Shown here: piece after piece, positions 1 through 8,060 of the stretch
How the letters are laid out: every line of letters starts with the position of its first letter
Numbering within the stretch: position 1 is the stretch's first letter
Source: a virus
Lineage: Duplodnaviria > Heunggongvirae > Uroviricota > Caudoviricetes
Direction: 5' to 3' (one strand)
Virus record (IMG/VR): IMGVR_UViG_2711768034_000011
DNA: 8,060 nt
Notes under the pieces: generated by a model
Seen by the model: the letters and a program-made list of their open reading frames with translations, nothing else
Databases searched by the model: none
Told to the model about the DNA's origin: nothing
Position numbers and translations under genes: made by a program

Positions 1-1254
1 ATGCTGGAACAAATGGGCATTGCCGCGAAGCAAGCCTCGTATAAATTAGCGCAACTCTCCAGCCGCGAAAAAAATCGCGTGCTGGAAAAAATCGCCGATG
101 AACTGGAAGCACAAAGCGAAATCATCCTCAACGCTAACGCCCAGGATGTTGCTGACGCGCGAGCCAATGGCCTTAGCGAAGCGATGCTTGACCGTCTGGC
201 ACTGACGCCCGCACGGCTGAAAGGCATTGCCGACGATGTACGTCAGGTGTGCAACCTCGCCGATCCGGTGGGGCAGGTAATCGATGGCGGCGTACTGGAC
301 AGCGGCCTGCGTCTTGAGCGTCGTCGCGTACCGCTGGGGGTTATTGGCGTGATTTATGAAGCGCGCCCGAACGTGACGGTTGATGTCGCTTCGCTGTGCC
401 TGAAAACCGGTAATGCGGTGATCCTGCGCGGTGGCAAAGAAACGTGTCGCACTAACGCTGCAACGGTGGCGGTGATTCAGGACGCCCTGAAATCCTGCGG
501 CTTACCGGCGGGTGCCGTGCAGGCGATTGATAATCCTGACCGTGCGCTGGTCAGTGAAATGCTGCGTATGGATAAATACATCGACATGCTGATCCCGCGT
601 GGTGGCGCTGGTTTGCATAAACTGTGCCGTGAACAGTCGACAATCCCGGTGATCACAGGTGGTATAGGCGTATGCCATATTTACGTTGATGAAAGTGTAG
701 AGATCGCTGAAGCATTAAAAGTGATCGTCAACGCGAAAACTCAGCGTCCGAGCACATGTAATACGGTTGAAACGTTGCTGGTGAATAAAAACATCGCCGA
801 TAGCTTCCTGCCCGCATTAAGCAAACAAATGGCGGAAAGCGGCGTGACATTACACGCAGATGCAGCTGCACTGGCGCAGTTGCAGGCAGGCCCTGCGAAG
901 GTGGTTGCTGTTAAAGCCGAAGAGTATGACGATGAGTTTCTGTCATTAGATTTGAACGTCAAAATCGTCAGCGATCTTGACGATGCCATCGCCCATATTC
1001 GTGAACACGGCACACAACACTCCGATGCGATCCTGACCCGCGATATGCGCAACGCCCAGCGTTTTGTTAACGAAGTGGATTCGTCCGCTGTTTACGTTAA
1101 CGCCTCTACGCGTTTTACCGACGGCGGCCAGTTTGGTCTGGGTGCGGAAGTGGCGGTAAGCACACAAAAACTCCACGCGCGTGGCCCAATGGGGCTGGAA
1201 GCACTGACCACTTACAAGTGGATCGGCATTGGTGATTACACCATTCGTGCGTAA
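1..1254 (+). CDS. proA: Gamma-glutamyl phosphate reductase (glutamate-5-semialdehyde dehydrogenase), complete 417 aa
   Basis: 417-aa ORF starting at window position 1; I recognise the sequence as enterobacterial ProA; location immediately upstream of thrW matches the known proBA-thrW arrangement (established knowledge). Confidence 0.95.
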
Positions 1255-1368
1255 ATAAAACCGGGTGATGCAAAAGTAGCCATTTGATTCACAAGGCCAT
1301 TGACGCATCGCCCGGTTAGTTTTAACCTTGTCCACCGTGATTCACGTTCGTGAACATGTCCTTTCAGG

Positions 1369-1444
1369 GCCGATATAGCTCAGTTGGTAGAGCAGCGCAT
1401 TCGTAATGCGAAGGTCGTAGGTTCGACTCCTATTATCGGCACCA
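1369..1444 (+). tRNA. thrW: tRNA-Thr (anticodon CGU), 76 nt with encoded CCA end
   Basis: Sequence GCCGATATAGCTCAGTTGGTAGAGCAGCGCATTCGTAATGCGAAGGTCGTAGGTTCGACTCCTATTATCGGCACCA; 7-bp acceptor stem GCCGATA/TATCGGC, D-loop and GTTCGACTCC T-arm motifs, anticodon CGT in the anticodon loop. A known phage integration target. Confidence 0.93.
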
Positions 1445-1458
1445 TTTAAATCAATAAG

Positions 1459-2622
1459 TTACACATCATTAGTACCTTCCTTATTTTTTGACTGGGACAA
1501 ATTTGGGACCGATGGGTTCAGGATCGAGTCTATTTGCCGTGCGTGTTCGGTAAGGTGATTAGGTGCGAGGTGAGCATATCGACGAACCATTTCGATAGAC
1601 TCCCAGCCTCCCATTTCCTGTAACACTGACAACGGGACACCGGCTTGAACCAGCCAACTTGCCCAGGTGTGTCTCAAGTCATGAAATCTGAAATCATCAA
1701 TACCAGCTCGTCTCAGCGCCGCTTTCCAGGCTGTGTTTGCGTCATACCGCATCTTCCTGACTGTTGGCGCTTTCGTTCCGTCTGGTTTGGTACAGCTTTC
1801 CTTGTACACAAATACCCAACGGTGATGATTCCCGATTTGTTTTTTCAATACGCGACATGCAGTATCATTCAGCGCAACGCCAATTGCGCGGTTTGATTTA
1901 CTCTCTTCCGGGTTTATCCATGCCACCCGGCGCTGCATGTCTATTTGTTGCCATTCAAGGTTGATGATGTTCGAGCGTCTTAAGCCTGTTGCCAGTGCAA
2001 ATTCAACAACAGACTTTAATGGCTCCGGACATTCATCAATCAGCCTTTGTGCTTCATGGGGCTCCAGCCAGCGGATCCGTTTATTCTTTGGTTGAGGCAC
2101 TTTAATAATTGGTGCCTTATCCAGCATTTTCCATTCACGCTCTGCGGCTCTTAGTAGGGCCTTTATAAATGAAAGATGCGTAGCCTTCGTTGCAACGGAC
2201 GCTGGTTTTGGCGTGTATTCTGGAACAGGTTTCCCTTTTTTTCTACATGCTTCTGCCCTGAGTTTCCAGTTTTCCTCATGACGCCGGTTCGTCATTTTCT
2301 GCATTGCTGAATAAATTTTTGATTCAGTAATGTCTCTTAGTTGCATTCCTGCGAAATGTTGAAGCCAGAATCCGATCCGGCTTTTGTCATCGTCCAGTGA
2401 TTTTTTATGTGCTTTCTCTTCGAGCCACCTGATACACGCCTCCTCGAACGTCATATCAGGTATTTCACCAAGTTTGCTGACCCGCCATGCTTCAGCCTTT
2501 AGCTTGTCATGGAGCTCTGTCGCCTGCCTTTTGTCCTTTGTTCCAAGAGACTGTTTAAATCTTTTACCGTTCGGCAATGTGAAACTGGCGTACCATATTT
2601 CACCTCTGCGGAAGAGTGACAT
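1459..2622 (-). CDS. int: Phage integrase, tyrosine recombinase, P22-type (387 aa)
   Basis: 387-aa ORF ending 14 nt from the tRNA 3' end; N-terminus [22 protein letters not shown] and C-terminal [13 protein letters not shown]...VRRYAHL catalytic boxes; SD-like AGAGGAAAG upstream of the ATG at 2622. P22 integrates at thrW (established knowledge). Confidence 0.93.
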
Positions 2623-2849
2623 TTTCTTTCCTCTGTTATGCCATCACCCGCGCTCACCTGGACAGTATGCAGCGGAGACTGAAGCGCCGCAATGCAGGCT
2701 TGTCGTGTTGTGAGGTAAGGAGATTTTAGTTTAGTGGGGTCTTTGCGTGTTGCCTGTAGGCGGCCTGTTCGTATCCAGTTGGTAGCGGTAGGTCTGGATA
2801 TCTTGAGAAACTGACAGGCCTCATCGAGTGTGAGGCTGTATGATTCCAT
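2499..2849 (-). CDS. xis: Excisionase / AlpA-like helix-turn-helix DNA-binding protein (116 aa from ATG at 2849; the listed ORF extends to a GTG at 2879)
   Basis: HTH-like segment [26 protein letters not shown]; AGAGGT SD 4 nt before the ATG at 2849; sits immediately upstream of int on the same strand. The 3' end overlaps the int 5' end by 124 nt in another frame; the 116-aa size matches my recollection of P22 Xis. Confidence 0.7.
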
Positions 2850-3099
2850 GGTTACCTCTGCTTTTTGAACGCATGTCACGTAACTTCTTAATGTGTTCTG
2901 CCGTTTCGATCTCTTCTGCTATCCGATCTGCATCAGCTTTATTCACAGGTTCAAAGTCATGATTAAAGCGGAACATGCTGGCGATACATGTTCCGCCTTT
3001 TCGGATGTAGTGAACTTTGTTGTGGGTAGAACGCAGGATTTTGCAGGGAGTGCCGTGGTGGTCGACGTACCAGGTGTTAGGAAAAATGATTCTGAACAT
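2821..3099 (-). CDS. Hypothetical phage protein, 92 aa, function unknown
   Basis: ORF with SD GAGGTG 5 nt upstream of the ATG at 3099; co-directional and tightly packed with neighbours (29-nt overlap with the xis start). I do not recognise the family. Confidence 0.6.
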   Translation of the reverse strand: MFRIIFPNTWYVDHHGTPCKILRSTHNKVHYIRKGGTCIASMFRFNHDFEPVNKADADRIAEEIETAEHIKKLRDMRSKSRGNHGIIQPHTR

Positions 3100-3146
3100 T
3101 TTTACACCTCAGTTGGACGATGTTGAAATTTGCTGCTTTGAGGCCA

Positions 3147-3365
3147 TCACAATCCCCATTGTTTGTTCTTAAGTTCGATCTCCTCCTGGCAACTTGCACA
3201 AGTCCGACAACCCTGAACGGCCAGGCGTCTTCGTTCATCTATGGGATCGCCACACTCACAACAATGAGTGGCAGATATAACCTGGTGGTTCAGACGACGC
3301 ATTTTTATTGCTGTATTGCGCTGTAATTCTTCGATTTCTGATGCTGAATCAATGATGTCTGCCAT
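3147..3365 (-). CDS. TraR/DksA-family C4 zinc-finger protein (72 aa), putative RNA polymerase-binding regulator
   Basis: Spacing C-x2-C-x17-C-x2-C (CCECGDPIDERRRLAVQGCRTCASC) typical of the DksA/TraR zinc finger; TraR-like proteins are common in lambdoid early-left operons (established knowledge). Confidence 0.8.
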   Translation of the reverse strand: MADIIDSASEIEELQRNTAIKMRRLNHQVISATHCCECGDPIDERRRLAVQGCRTCASCQEEIELKNKQWGL

Positions 3366-3371
3366 CTTCCA

Positions 3372-3467
3372 TTAATCCCTGAATTGTTGGTTAATACGCT
3401 TGAGGGTGAATGCGAATAATAAAAAAGGAGCCTGTAGCTCCCTGATGATTTTGCTTTTCATGTTCAT
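3372..3467 (-). CDS. Putative small ORF, 31 aa (MNMKSKIIRELQAPFLLFAFTLKRINQQFRD), not in the supplied ORF track
   Basis: First ATG overlaps the stop of the upstream 72-aa gene as ATGA; AAGGAG lies 8 nt before the in-frame second ATG; its TAA stop is 6 nt before the TraR-like ATG. It encloses a hairpin plus U-tract, so it may instead be a terminator or attenuator. Confidence 0.3.
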   Translation of the reverse strand: MNMKSKIIRELQAPFLLFAFTLKRINQQFRD

Positions 3468-3679
3468 CGCTCCTTAAAGACGCCGTTTAACATGCCGATC
3501 GCCAGGCTTAAATGAGTCGGTGTGAATCCCATCAGCGTTACCGTTTCGCGGTGCTTCTTCAGTACGCTACGGCAAATGTCATCGACGTTTTTATCCGGAA
3601 ACTGCTGTCTGGCTTTTTTGATTTCAGAATTAGCCTGACGGGCTATGCTGCGAAGGGCGTTTTCCTGCTGAGGTGTCAT
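3464..3679 (-). CDS. Hypothetical phage protein, 72 aa from ATG at 3679 (listed ORF extends to a TTG at 3778)
   Basis: ATG at 3679 overlaps the stop of the upstream 27-aa ORF (ATGA); its stop overlaps the start of the downstream small ORF (ATGA). Product MTPQQENALRSIARQANSEIKKARQQF... is not recognised. Confidence 0.55.
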   Translation of the reverse strand: MTPQQENALRSIARQANSEIKKARQQFPDKNVDDICRSVLKKHRETVTLMGFTPTHLSLAIGMLNGVFKER

Positions 3680-3759
3680 TGAACAAGTCCCATGTCGGCA
3701 AGCATAAGCACACAGAATATGAAGCCCGCTGCCAGAAAAATGCATTCCGTGGTTGTCAT
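3676..3759 (-). CDS. Putative small hydrophobic peptide, 27 aa (MTTTECIFLAAGFIFCVLMLADMGLVQ), not in the supplied ORF track
   Basis: Strong SD GGGAGG (3764-3769) 4 nt upstream of the ATG at 3759; ATG overlaps the methyltransferase stop (ATGA) and its TGA overlaps the next gene ATG (ATGA); hydrophobic core long enough for one membrane helix. Confidence 0.4.
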   Translation of the reverse strand: MTTTECIFLAAGFIFCVLMLADMGLVQ

Positions 3760-4313
3760 GCAGCCTCCCGACGGGCAAGAATCCTTGAGCCGAACGCCAT
3801 CAACTCTCCACGATCAACGGTCGTAAAGTGGCAGTGTGTACGGGGGTATGGGTGCCAGATAATGAGCATCGAGCCTTTATTATTTCCACTGACGGGTTTC
3901 TCAGTGAGTGGGTTAATAAATGCCAGTCGTCCTGCCGTGATGAATCTGACCTCACTGGCGGTTTGTATCGCTTCATGAAACCATCCGACAGATGTGTCAG
4001 CAGGCAATAACATTACACATCCCACACTACTGAATTTGTTTTCAGTGGCTGCCTTTTTCACAAAAGGGGAAATATTGCTGTATGGTGGATTCAACCAGAC
4101 ATAACCAGAGGCATATCCCATTGCTTCAGGCCATGAAGTGGTTAATGTGTTCTGCTCCTGTGAGATAAAAAGCCGACATAGTCGGTTTTTTTCGCTGGCT
4201 GCAGCATCAAGTTGAAAAACGAACTCTGCATTAAGCGCAGCAAAAATCTCTGGTGGTGTGCGCCAGCTGTCGCGATGTTCGGCAGGAGTATTGCTTCCGG
4301 TGAAATCAGTCAT
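3756..4313 (-). CDS. Phage-type DNA N6-adenine methyltransferase (185 aa)
   Basis: NPPY catalytic motif (WLNPPYSN) and N-terminal W-x-TPPEIF...LDAAAS pattern typical of the phage N-6-adenine methyltransferase family; no adjacent restriction endonuclease gene. Confidence 0.85.
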   Translation of the reverse strand: MTDFTGSNTPAEHRDSWRTPPEIFAALNAEFVFQLDAAASEKNRLCRLFISQEQNTLTTSWPEAMGYASGYVWLNPPYSNISPFVKKAATENKFSSVGCVMLLPADTSVGWFHEAIQTASEVRFITAGRLAFINPLTEKPVSGNNKGSMLIIWHPYPRTHCHFTTVDRGELMAFGSRILARREAA

Positions 4314-4369
4314 ACAGCCCCCCGTTTATTATTTATCTCCTCAGCCAGCCGCTGTGCTTTCAGTGGATT

Positions 4370-4403
4370 TCTGATAACAGAAAGGCCGGGAAATACCCAG
4401 CCT
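4370..4403 (-). terminator. Candidate intrinsic terminator between exo and the methyltransferase gene
   Basis: On the minus-strand transcript: AGGCUGGG-UAUUU-CCCGGCCU (8-bp stem including one G-U pair) followed by UUUCUGUUAUC, located 62 nt downstream of the exo stop. Confidence 0.4.
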
Positions 4404-4464
4404 CGCTTTGTAACGGAGTAGATGAAAGTGATCGCGCCTACCCGGATATTATCGCGAGGATGCT

Positions 4465-5145
4465 TCATCGCCATTGCTCCCCAAATACAAAACCAATTTC
4501 AGCCAGTGCCTCGTCCATTTTTTCGATGAACTCCGGCACCATCTCGTCAAAATTCGCCATGTACTTTTCATCCCGCTCAACCACGACATAATGCAGGCCT
4601 TCACGCTTCATGCGCGGGTCATAGTTGGCAAAGTACCAGGCATCTTTTCGCGTCACCCACATGCTGTACTGCACCTGGGCCATGTAAGCCGACTTTATGG
4701 CCTCGAAACCACCGAGCCGGAACTTCATGAAATCCCGGGAGGTAAACGGGCATTTCAGCTCAAGGCCATTGCCGTCACTGCATAAACCATCGGGAGAGCA
4801 GGCGGTACGCATACTTTCGTCGCGATAGATGATCGGGGATTCAATAACATTCACGCCGGAAGTGAACTCAAACAGGGTTCTGGCGTCGTTCTCGTACTGT
4901 TTTCCCCATGCCAGCGCCTTAGCATTAACTTCCGTAGCCACACCGGTGCAAACCTCAGCCAGCAGGGTGTGGAAGTAGGACATTTTCATGTCAGGCCACT
5001 TCTTTCCGGAGCGGGGTTTTGCTATCACGTTGTGAACTTCTGAAGCGGTGATGACGCCGAGCCGTAATTTGTGCCACGCATCATCCCCTTGTTCGACAGC
5101 TCTCACATCGATCCCGGTACGCTGCAGGATAATGTCCGGTGTCAT
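4465..5145 (-). CDS. exo: Lambda-type exonuclease (Red alpha), 226 aa
   Basis: Near-identical to the phage lambda Exo sequence as I recall it ([40 protein letters not shown]...); 4-nt ATGA overlap with bet as in lambda. Confidence 0.95.
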
Positions 5146-5927
5146 GCAGCCACCTTCTGTTCAGAGGCTTTCTGTTTCAGGAATCCAAGAGCTTTCACTG
5201 CTTCGGCCTGTGTCAGTTCCGACGATGCGCGAATGTCGCGGCGAAATATCTGGGAACAGAGCGGCAATAAGTCGTCATCCCATGTTTTGTCCAGGGCAAT
5301 CAGCAGAGTGTTAATCTCCTGCATGGTTTCATCGTTAACCGGAGTGATGTCGCGTTCCGGCTGACGTTCTGCAGTGTATGCGGTATTTTCGACAATGCGC
5401 TCGGCTTCATCCTTGTCATAGATACCAGCAAATCCGAAGGCGAGACGGGCACACTGAATCATGGCTTTATGCCGTAACATCCGTTTAGGATGCGACTGCC
5501 ACGGCCCCGTGATTTCTCTGCCTTCACGGGTTTTGAATGGTTCGCGGCGGCATTCATCCATCCACTCGGTAACGCAGATCGGATGATTACGGTCCTTGCG
5601 GTAAATCCGGCATGTACAGGATTCATTGTCCTGCTCAAAGTCCATGCCATCAAACTGCTGGTTTTCATTGATGATGCGGGACCAGCCATCAACGCCCACC
5701 ACCGGAACGATGCCGTTCTGCTTATCAGGGAAGGCGTAAATTTCTTTCGTCCACGGATTAAGGCCGTACTGGTTGGCGACGATCAACAATGCGATGAACT
5801 GCGCATCGCTGGCATCACCTTTAAATGCCGTCTGGCGAAGAGTGGTGATCAGTTCCTGTGGGTCGACAGAATCCATGCCGACACGTTCAGCCAGCTTCCC
5901 TGCCAGCGTTGCGAGTGCTGTACTCAT
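5142..5927 (-). CDS. bet: Lambda-type single-strand annealing protein Bet (Red beta), 261 aa
   Basis: Near-identical to lambda Bet as recalled ([66 protein letters not shown]...). Confidence 0.95.
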
Positions 5928-5932
5928 CCGTT

Positions 5933-6229
5933 TTATACCTCTGAATCAATATCAACTTGGTGGTGAGCAATGGTTTCAACCATGTACCGGATGTGTTCTG
6001 CCATGCGCTCCTGAAACTCAACATCGTCATCAAACGCACGGGTAATGGCTTTTTTGCTGGCCCCGTGGCGTTGCAAATGATCGATGCATAGCGATTCAAA
6101 CAGGTGCTGGGGCAGGCCTTTTTCCATGTCGTCTGCCAGTTCTGCCTCTTTCTCTTCACGGGCGATCTGCTGGTAGTGACGCGCCCAGCTCTGAGCCTCA
6201 AGACGATCCTGAATGTAATAAGCGTTCAT
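5933..6229 (-). CDS. gam: Lambda-type Gam (RecBCD inhibitor), short 98-aa form only
   Basis: [21 protein letters not shown]... matches lambda GamS; AGGAG SD 7 nt upstream. The GamL-type N-terminal extension starts at an ATG at 6350 but is out of frame here (see findings). Confidence 0.93.
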
Positions 6230-6304
6230 GGCTGAACTCCTGAAAATGGCTGTGAAAATAGCGCCCGCGAAATGCCAGGCTGATTAGGAAAACAGGAAAG
6301 GGGG

Positions 6305-6448
6305 TTAGTGAATGCTTTTGCTTGATCTCAGTTTCAGCATTAATATACATTTTTTATAAGCGTCGACGGCTTCACGAAACATCTTTTCATCGCCAATAAA
6401 AGTGGCGATAGTGAATTTAGTCTGGATAGCCATAAGTGTTTGATCCAT
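6305..6448 (-). CDS. kil: Lambda-type Kil (host cell-division inhibitor), 47 aa
   Basis: [33 protein letters not shown]...[10 protein letters not shown] matches lambda Kil as recalled; AGGAG SD upstream. The listed 89-aa ORF 6305..6574 is this gene with a spurious upstream extension. Confidence 0.85.
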
Positions 6449-6581
6449 TTTTTGGGACTCCTGGCTGATTAAGTATGTCGATAAGGCGTTTCCATCCGTC
6501 ACGTAATTTACGGGTGATTCGTTCAAGTAAAGATTCGGAAGGGCAGCCAGCAACAGGCCACCCTGCAATGGCATATTGCAT
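6417..6581 (-). CDS. cIII: Lambda-type CIII (FtsH/HflB inhibitor), 54 aa
   Basis: Below the ORF-track length cutoff. Manual translation of the minus strand from the ATG at 6581 gives MQYAIAGWPVAGCP... and ends ...[15 protein letters not shown] with TAA at 6417-6419; AAGGAG SD 7 nt upstream; 32-nt overlap with kil as in lambda. Confidence 0.85.
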   Translation of the reverse strand: MQYAIAGWPVAGCPSESLLERITRKLRDGWKRLIDILNQPGVPKNGSNTYGYPD

Positions 6582-6653
6582 GGTGTGCTCCTTATTTATA
6601 CATAACGAAAAACGCCTCGAGTGAAGCGTTATTGGTATGCGGTAACGCCGCGC

Positions 6654-7022
6654 TCAGGCGGCTTTGATAGTCATATCATCTGAATCAAATATTCCTGATG
6701 TATCGATATCGGTAATTCTTATTCCTTCGCTACCATCCATTGTAGGCCATCCTTCCTGACCATTTCCATCATTCCAGTCGAACTCACACACAACACCATA
6801 TGCATTTAAGTCGCTTGAAATTGCTATAAGCAGAGCATGTTGCGCCAGCATGATTAATACAGCATTTAATACAGAGCCGTGTTTATTGAGTCGGTATTCA
6901 GAGTCTGACCAGAAATTATTAATCTTGTGAAGTTTTTCCTCTGTCATTAAGTCATGGTCGATTTCAATTTCTATTGATGCTTTCCAGTCGTAATCAATGA
7001 TGTATTTTTTGATGTTTGACAT
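6654..7022 (-). CDS. ea10: Lambda-type Ea10 (Ssb-like early protein), 122 aa
   Basis: MSNIKKYIIDYDWKASIEIEIDHD... matches lambda Ea10 as recalled. Confidence 0.9.
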   Translation of the reverse strand: MSNIKKYIIDYDWKASIEIEIDHDLMTEEKLHKINNFWSDSEYRLNKHGSVLNAVLIMLAQHALLIAISSDLNAYGVVCEFDWNDGNGQEGWPTMDGSEGIRITDIDTSGIFDSDDMTIKAA

Positions 7023-7129
7023 CTGTTCATATCCTCACAGAAAAAAATCGCCCTCACATTAGAGGTCAAAGAAGATTTCCAATAATCAGAACAAGTCGGC
7101 TCCTGTTTAGTTACGAGCGACATTGCTCC

Positions 7130-7157
7130 GTGTATTCACTCGTTGGAATGAATACAC
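7130..7157. repeat. Perfect 9-bp inverted repeat GTGTATTCA / TGAATACAC with a 10-nt spacer
   Basis: Read directly from the sequence, in the intergenic region between the AT-rich ORF and ea10. Confidence 0.6.
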
Positions 7158-7181
7158 AGTGCAGTGTTTATTCTTTTGTTT

Positions 7182-7211
7182 GCGTGAAAATGAAACCCGC
7201 CTGAGCGGGTT
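7182..7211 (-). terminator. Candidate intrinsic terminator overlapping the stop of the AT-rich ORF
   Basis: Stem AACCCGC / GCGGGTT (7 bp, loop CTGA) at 7194-7211; on the minus transcript followed by UCAUUUUCACGC; on the plus strand followed by a T5 run 8 nt away, so possibly bidirectional. Confidence 0.35.
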
Positions 7212-7763
7212 ATGACCACTTTTTGTTTGGATTTCGTTGGTGAGCGTGGTTTACAGGATTATTTGATATACCCCATAACTCTGACTCGCTTATCTCTACA
7301 CGAGAGAAAGACCTGCTTTCTTTCAGTTCTTTTATAAACCTAGAACCTACGATGACATCTATTGTCCCAGAAAGTTCTTGTAAAAGATCTTTGTTTTTTC
7401 TGAGGAAGAAAACATCTTCTTTATATTTAATTTTTACATAGAATTTATTCTGTATTTTTAATATATCAAAGCATGGCAGATATCTATATCCCTCATGCTT
7501 TCGCCACTGCTTAACAATTATAACATCTCTTTCATTTACTGCATTAATCAGCCCAAGACCAAGTATAGGTATGAATATTCTATTGTCTGCCGAAAGCGTA
7601 CAATTATCACCACCAGGCAAATATGTATAAATCATGTCGGAATTTTTATACGCATCAACGAATGCACGTAAGAATCGTACATATTTTTGCCATCCGTTTA
7701 TACCAAATTTACCATATAAGTATTCTTTATTTGTTAGAAGAAAACTATTTGTATCAGGAGCCT
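7210..7763 (-). pseudogene. AT-rich orphan ORF of unknown function, probably 5'-truncated by IS1 (at least 183 codons of open frame; first ATG at 7635 gives 141 aa)
   Basis: Markedly lower GC than the flanking lambda-like genes; the frame stays open for 42 sense codons upstream of the ATG at 7635 right up to the IS1 junction, with no in-frame ATG/GTG/TTG and no SD before 7635. Confidence 0.5.
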
Positions 7764-8060
7764 GGTAATGACTCCAACTTATTGATAGTGTTTTATGTTC
7801 AGATAATGCCCGATGACTTTGTCATGCAGCTCCACCGATTTTGAGAACGACAGCGACTTCCGTCCCAGCCGTGCCAGGTGCTGCCTCAGATTCAGGTTAT
7901 GCCGCTCAATTCGCTGCGTATATCGCTTGCTGATTACGTGCAGCTTTCCCTTCAGGCGGGATTCATACAGCGGCCAGCCATCCGTCATCCATATCACCAC
8001 GTCAAAGGGTGACAGCAGGCTCATAAGACGCCCCAGCGTCGCCATAGTGCGCTCACCGAA
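7764..8060 (-). mobile_element. IS1, partial (right inverted-repeat end, 297 of about 768 bp; continues beyond the window)
   Basis: Begins with the IS1 terminal inverted repeat GGTAATGACTCCAACTTATTGAT at 7764 and contains the insB 3' coding region on the minus strand. Confidence 0.95.
7779..8060 (-). CDS. insB: IS1 transposase InsB, 3' portion (5' end lies beyond the window)
   Basis: Translation ...[93 protein letters not shown] matches IS1 InsB as recalled. Confidence 0.9.

Follow-up and report, generated by a model that had tools for sequence, protein, structure and literature searches.

A single IS1 insertion as the probable anchor of cryptic prophage erosion in an Escherichia coli lineage

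The window analyzed here, 8,060 nucleotides in length, is the last 8,060 bp, less one base, of draft contig CXWS01000044.1 (29,806 bp; GCA_001268745.1). It begins in proA, passes the thrW attachment site and continues through prophage genes to an insertion sequence at its right edge (Table 1). These genes lie on one strand in the order of a lambdoid early-left operon, N-(accessory)-ea10-cIII-kil-gam-bet-exo-…-xis-int. The nearest phage for positions 1445-7181 is the thrW-integrating Shigella phage SfI (97.7%), and phage 434 matches positions 4439-7763 at approximately 97.9% DNA identity. The early-left operon of phage 434, which in the curated record reads pL, nutL, N, CPT_434_48, terminator, ea10, cIII, kil, gam, bet, exo, has the same gene order, and its gene 48 is the homologue of the gene that is interrupted in the window; the window differs in that this gene is split by IS1 and in that N and pL fall outside the stretch.

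The integrase protein is identical to that encoded by the thrW prophage of strain NH-21, which appears to be complete. The exact Bet protein is widespread (18,957 blocks), and the exact Exo variant occurs on a single contig of the whole assembly collection, CXWS01000044.1. The Dam methyltransferase gene is flanked by exo/DUF1317 and a TraR-like gene; in phage 434 and in the argU prophages this place is taken by orf63/DUF1382-type genes, and the difference looks like a typical mosaic module swap. A consensus terminator scan of the window returned 3 sites, compared with 1.2 ± 1.4 expected.

Table 1. Features of the window, with positions counted from its first nucleotide.
Feature	Position	Strand	Basis
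proA	1-1254		annotation of relatives
thrW, tRNA-Thr (CGT), prophage attachment site next to proA	1369-1444	+	ARAGORN; annotation of relatives
Integrase, full length, 387 aa, P22/SfI-type	1459-2622	-	Pfam Phage_integrase, E=9.5e-48
Phage Dam-type N6-adenine methyltransferase	3756-4313	-	
exo	4465-5145	-	Pfam YqaJ
bet (contains affinity switch 5565/5566)	5142-5927	-	Pfam RecT
gam	5933-6229	-	Pfam, E=3.4e-65
kil, 47 aa per PGAP; ORF open to 6574	6305-6448	-	Pfam Lambda_Kil, E=8.7e-20; L001 annotation
cIII	6417-6581	-	Pfam Lambda_CIII, E=1.5e-30
Terminator-like hairpin in the ea10-cIII gap	6611-6630	-	consensus scan only
ea10-like gene, DUF2528 (in phage 434, ssDNA-binding protein)	6654-7022	-	Pfam, E=4e-46; phage 434 annotation
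Terminator-like hairpin directly after the stop codon of the remnant ORF (putative)	7194-7211	-	consensus scan only
3′ remnant (codons 106-289) of the 289-aa gene (phrog_12139; 434 CPT_434_48)	7210-7763	-	comparison with IS1-free relatives and phage 434
9-bp IS1 target CAGGAGCCT, left copy of the target-site duplication	7755-7763		comparison with L003/L002 and L008
IS1 right terminal inverted repeat (IRR), 23 bp	7764-7786		direct read
IS1 (IS1A-type), right-end 297 bp, cut by the contig/window end	7764-8060	-	sequence; identity to 768-bp copies; PGAP label
3′ part of insB, C-terminal 88 aa of the IS1 transposase	7779-8045	-	PF03400 DDE_Tnp_IS1, E=5.7e-48, profile 44-131 of 131

The segment from 7764 to 8060 is a genuine IS1 end. 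It opens at exactly 7764 with the IS1 right inverted repeat GGTAATGACTCCAACTTATTGATAG, its 297 nucleotides match full 768-bp IS1 copies of related genomes without a difference (297/297), and PGAP labels the element at the same junction 'IS1-like element IS1A family transposase'. At this junction, which is common to 15 related genomes, the IS1 copies of the relatives are 768 bp long; the matching left inverted repeat (IRL; …GTTGGCAGCATCACC) stands 768 bp from the IRR, and full InsAB′ with its programmed frameshift is annotated. The terminal repeat, the InsB C-terminus and the AT-rich region of insertion are those of the 768-bp IS1 (IS1A/IS1B type) of E. coli and Shigella, and the length and the 9-bp duplication of that element are both seen in the relatives. 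Nothing is distinctive about the window's copy, which is limited to 297 bp. IS1 accounts for the last 298 nt of the contig: the window stops inside the element because a short-read draft contig breaks in the IS1 repeat, and in the window's own genome the element can be read over this right end only.

The transposase is oriented leftward, which is the direction of pL transcription, and pL transcripts would enter the element at its IRL, in the sense of insA-insB. The lowest GC content of the window (0.31-0.34) is found at 7201-7800, although the 9-bp target itself is GC-rich, unlike its AT-rich surroundings. A promoter scan yielded 6 sites against 5.2 expected, with none across the junction that could represent an outward hybrid promoter at the IS1 end. 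A 73-aa ORF (7623-7844, plus strand) bridges the boundary between the interrupted gene and IS1 and is called by gene callers in the L007 and L008 assemblies; it is almost certainly a junction artefact and not a gene.

By comparison with intact copies, IS1 sits after nt 316 (codon 106) of a 289-aa gene, and the annotated 141-aa ORF at 7210-7635 begins at internal Met149 of this gene. Intact versions are present in strain EM18-18-42 (L003), in a prophage at argU (12611-13480, minus strand), and in strain 82.0311 (L002), in a prophage at the lambda att site. In both, the gene is followed directly by N and then, further to the right, by the immunity region (pL, cI), and the empty site runs from …CAGGAGCCT straight into TATCTACAG… through an uninterrupted reading frame. 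An earlier note on this DNA, made from the letters alone, had recognized an IS1 right end starting at 7764, and the inverted repeat, the InsB profile match and the full identity to complete copies show this start to be exact. Its assignment of the site to the early-left (pL) operon, with N and pL expected to the right, agrees with phage 434 and with intact relatives, in which cI follows as well, and the comparison with IS1-free relatives that it proposed is provided by EM18-18-42 and 82.0311, which have the empty site and the expected neighbors. The same note had IS1 abutting an AT-rich ORF; the base composition is as it said, but the element interrupts the ORF rather than adjoining it.

In the phage 434 record CPT_434_48 bears the name 'Nun C-terminal peptide-containing protein'. 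The 289-aa protein ends VNHAHQRNPNKKWS, and its final 14 residues are identical at all 14 positions to the C-terminus of HK022 Nun (…HAHQRNPNKKWS; PDB 6alg chain N), whose C-terminal peptide arrests RNA polymerase, and this tail is retained in the truncated copy of the window (codons at 7210-7251). The protein also matches phrog_5632 (E=1.6e-05). Its likeness to Nun is limited to the last ~27 residues, the remainder being unrelated: the arrest-peptide tail is common to the two proteins, whereas the N-terminal arginine-rich motif and the overall ~109-aa homology that characterize Nun were not found in the 289-aa protein. Searches of the interrupted gene with Pfam and PADLOC gave no match. Because only the tail corresponds, Pfam is silent and the protein belongs to a separate family, phrog_12139, we do not class it with Nun.

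A prophage at ybhC/lambda att (L019; CP028752.1) carries IS1 in the same gene at window-equivalent ~7272-7281, and the distal part of the AT-rich gene is inverted there relative to ea10. The possibility that this inverted segment ends at the IS1 site of the window was considered and rejected; L019 represents an independent event, and IS1 has therefore struck this gene at least twice.

The 141-aa product and the exact junction recur in at least 15 other genomes, in every case at argU (the DLP12 site) and in none at thrW. We compared 16 loci from 15 such genomes, which belong to the E. coli lineage of the source strain, using L029 as the intact reference. The argU loci share the layout fimZ-argU-int′ (405 nt)-exo-bet-gam-kil-cIII-ea10-ORF′-IS1. 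On the IRR side the junction is identical in 16/16 loci, and on the IRL side nine distinct flanks occur. Those that fall within L029 map in the same orientation to positions 646, 6617, 7535, 9828 and 12041, the last four corresponding to deletions of 6.0, 6.9, 9.2 and 11.4 kb. The four flanks outside L029 comprise one at IS3/ybcH-nfrA and three near cusS. In 14 of the 15 genomes a target duplication is absent from the junction, and these genomes display eight different collinear deletion endpoints. A fixed junction, variable collinear endpoints and no duplication make up the pattern of IS1-mediated adjacent deletion, which is observed here in the relatives only.

The fifteenth genome, L008 (JBIHJR010000001.1), reads CAGGAGCCT-IS1-CGGGAGCCT-TATCTACAG…, followed by the rest of the gene, and is a simple insertion. 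The second copy of its target duplication, CGGGAGCCT, matches CAGGAGCCT at 8/9 positions, in an assembly that contains single-base indels elsewhere. L008 also has a separate deletion of 4.26 kb (L029 1203-5463), with one breakpoint inside N, the other inside ninB and 7 bp of overlap where they meet; lost with it are pL, cI, cro, cII, O, P, ren and the 5′ part of N. pL together with an intact N was found in 0/15 of the junction-bearing genomes.

Sequence divergence around the site is very low. Over positions 5566-7763 (2,198 bp), the empty site of EM18-18-42 differs by only 2 substitutions, and there are none between the window and the less-deleted loci L005, L011 and L012. The substitution 7201 C>T is present in all genomes deleted to 12041 or beyond, and the window has the ancestral allele. 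The lineage is rich in IS1, with at least 40 matching pieces per chromosome. In L012 (JAIPZR010000001.1) a second IS1 lies within kil, at window-equivalent 6334-6342, and 9 bp are common to the two alignments that flank it, as a target duplication would produce. In L001 (S1-INA-02-B; 10543-11328) bet of the argU remnant has an internal stop, Q32*, but the window and most relatives have the gene intact.

In their position (fimZ-argU…cusS), their lambdoid gene order and their decay through insertion sequences and deletions, the loci of the relatives correspond to the DLP12-type cryptic lambdoid prophage at argU. The window departs from this type: its junction is joined to thrW and proA, its integrase is full length and its left arm resembles that of SfI. 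Deletion adjacent to IS1 has been described, classically in the gal region and, as IS1-flanked deletions of flhDC, in MG1655 (PMC12844343); there as here, one end of the IS stays fixed and DNA on the other side is variably lost. The known cases are laboratory mutants, whereas the present series extends across natural isolates of one lineage.

The window itself is composite. A sharp switch in affinity occurs at 5565/5566, inside bet: all 36 of 36 mismatches to the argU-site copies fall within 4455-5565 (3.2%), and 5566-8060 has none relative to L011. Positions 1-5565 are a strain-specific thrW prophage arm, and 5566-8060 are of the argU-remnant type. The left part reaches at most 99.3% identity to any thrW prophage of complete genomes. 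The whole window was not found in complete E. coli genomes, the best of which covers 1-7181, and exact-pattern scans of species-representative genomes with a window-specific 90-mer and a junction 60-mer returned no match. The chromosomal flank of the source, from proA to pepD, is 100% identical to 8/9 complete genomes with the junction at argU, and the source strain therefore belongs to that E. coli lineage. A Shigella origin, suggested by the IS1-rich genome and by SfI as the best phage, was rejected on the same identity.

The switch at 5565/5566 indicates recombination between prophages or, less likely, a mis-joined contig. Genomes with the argU junction have thrW and argU in direct orientation, separated by 250-350 kb that include the essential genes cysS and folD. 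Because a single reciprocal crossover joining the two sites would give a lethal deletion, it was rejected as the origin of the composite. The closed genome of strain 300081 contains an argU remnant (L005) as well as a thrW prophage (L028) whose left arm is built like that of the window and continues into gam-kilR-immunity. The exo-bet sequences of these two loci, ~350 kb apart, are identical over window-equivalent ~4465-5504 and diverge on both sides, which looks like intragenomic gene conversion between prophages and would mean that conversion between the thrW and argU loci does happen. The nin/rusA/Q region offers right-hand homology for a double crossover. A real exchange, by conversion or by double crossover, is thus the more likely source of the composite.

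Taken together, these observations are best explained by a single IS1 insertion followed by erosion of the prophage anchored on IS1, with a segment exchanged into a thrW prophage, a reading to which we assign a probability of roughly 0.8. In a 434-like lambdoid prophage, IS1 would have transposed once into codon 106 of a dispensable AT-rich gene of the leftward (pL) operon, the gene that follows N, and would have duplicated its 9-mer target. The insertion appears to be old and inherited, as it is common, nucleotide for nucleotide, to at least 15 genomes of an IS1-rich lineage. The IRR junction would then have stayed fixed while DNA on the IRL side was lost to extents ranging from nothing to the whole remainder of the prophage as far as cusS, through IS1-mediated adjacent deletion or recombination with a second IS1 copy. 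The same scar is predicted whether the route was intramolecular transposition with deletion of adjacent DNA or recombination of two direct IS1 copies. The grouping of 7201 C>T by deletion depth fits such a stepwise erosion from one IS1 end. IS1 would, on this model, act mainly as an anchor for erosion and not as a polar block. Whether the window's own strain carries the simple insertion or a deletion can be judged from its relatives only. Positions 5566-8060 would most likely have been joined to the different, strain-specific thrW arm by homologous exchange.

The last step of this model depends on the linkage of IS1 to thrW, which is seen in one short-read draft contig only. If the contig were mis-joined, the junction would truly lie at argU, and the thrW prophage would continue otherwise, into gam-kilR-immunity as in 300081 and NH-21, the two having been connected through their bet-gam repeat. 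In keeping with this, the junction is at argU in 15/15 other genomes, the change from strain-specific to 100% argU-type sequence falls in a region common to both prophages, a single crossover giving this junction would be lethal, and the contig ends in a repeat, as expected of a repeat-limited short-read assembly. However, the contig runs for more than 2 kb beyond the switch without a break, and assemblers normally halt at an unresolved fork instead of choosing the wrong branch; moreover, gene conversion between exactly these loci is visible in 300081, and a double crossover using the right-hand homology is feasible. We therefore consider a mis-join unlikely. The corresponding claim in its full form remains tentative: it is possible that the thrW linkage is real and that an IS1-tagged block from the argU cryptic prophage (bet′-gam-kil-cIII-ea10-truncated Nun-tail gene-IS1) replaced, by homologous exchange, the kilR, immunity and replication region of a newer SfI-like thrW prophage.

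IS1 is classically polar in ordinary operons, and the earlier note had argued in these terms. Its model amounts to a simple insertion with a 9-bp duplication and with N, nutL, pL and cI to the right, in which polarity on Red, kil, cIII and int/xis would block the operon and the thrW prophage could not excise. N, pL and cI do stand immediately to the right in intact relatives, L008 keeps a simple insertion with its duplication, and by the allele at 7201 the window groups with the less-deleted forms. We nonetheless judge this reading to be distinctly improbable. A missing duplication and different DNA on the far side are the two observations that the note itself had named as speaking against a simple insertion, and both are made in 14 of 15 relatives; even L008 has lost the start of N, pL, cI and P. 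The mechanism is also weak, because transcription by N-modified polymerase ignores IS polarity. With N and nutL upstream, the polymerase reads through IS insertions as well as terminators, and in work by Adhya, Gottesman and de Crombrugghe in 1974 N reportedly released the polarity of such insertions; the site described here, past N and nutL in a pL operon, has the setting of this known effect of lambda N. Modification by N persists while RNA polymerase crosses the early genes, and terminators of the Rho-dependent and the intrinsic kind are both suppressed (PMC4496710). On induction, a simple insertion at this place beyond N would thus exert little polarity. Terminator-like hairpins are already present downstream of the site (7194-7211 and 6611-6630), which would make the operon N-dependent with or without IS1.

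Polarity of IS1 on Red, kil, cIII and int-xis is thus doubtful, and for the sequenced relatives the question is moot because N and pL are deleted there. In the relatives, to judge from their sequences, the decisive lesion is that pL, N and the genes for immunity and replication have been lost. The left arm (Red, kil, cIII, ea10) is likely silent, chiefly through deletion of pL and N rather than through polarity. That the prophage is defective, as the earlier note suggested, is plausible, though by this route and not by the one it proposed. That it is locked for excision, the note's other suggestion, does not follow, since int is full length and its protein identical to that of the apparently complete thrW prophage of NH-21.

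A convergent origin, in which the thrW prophage natively carried the 434-type gene and IS1 separately struck the same hot-spot nucleotide, may be set aside as very unlikely: IS1 is highly active in this lineage and has independently entered the same gene in L019 and kil in L012, but the site, orientation and IS1 variant are identical, the 2.2-kb flank shows zero substitutions relative to L005, L011 and L012 where different lambdoid prophages diverge by 1-3%, in other thrW prophages homology stops at 6311 or 7181 and the 289-aa gene is missing, and IS1-free thrW prophages with the gene and the same flanking SNP pattern are absent from close relatives.

That cryptic lambdoid prophages decay through IS1 insertions and through deletions anchored on them is textbook knowledge, and in public annotation the element described here is already called IS1. 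One lesson is that a feature at the edge of a window may end there through a draft contig break in a repeat; claims about DNA further to the right, or about which prophage owns the IS, need a closed assembly. If the thrW linkage is true, the newcomer would have been disarmed by a defective prophage already in residence, a natural case of domestication driven by a cryptic prophage, and the Nun-tail fragment may have been retained for a function. The natural isolates hold the whole series, from the empty site through the simple insertion with its duplication to eight nested deletions, and this series cleanly illustrates the erosion of a prophage by one IS copy.
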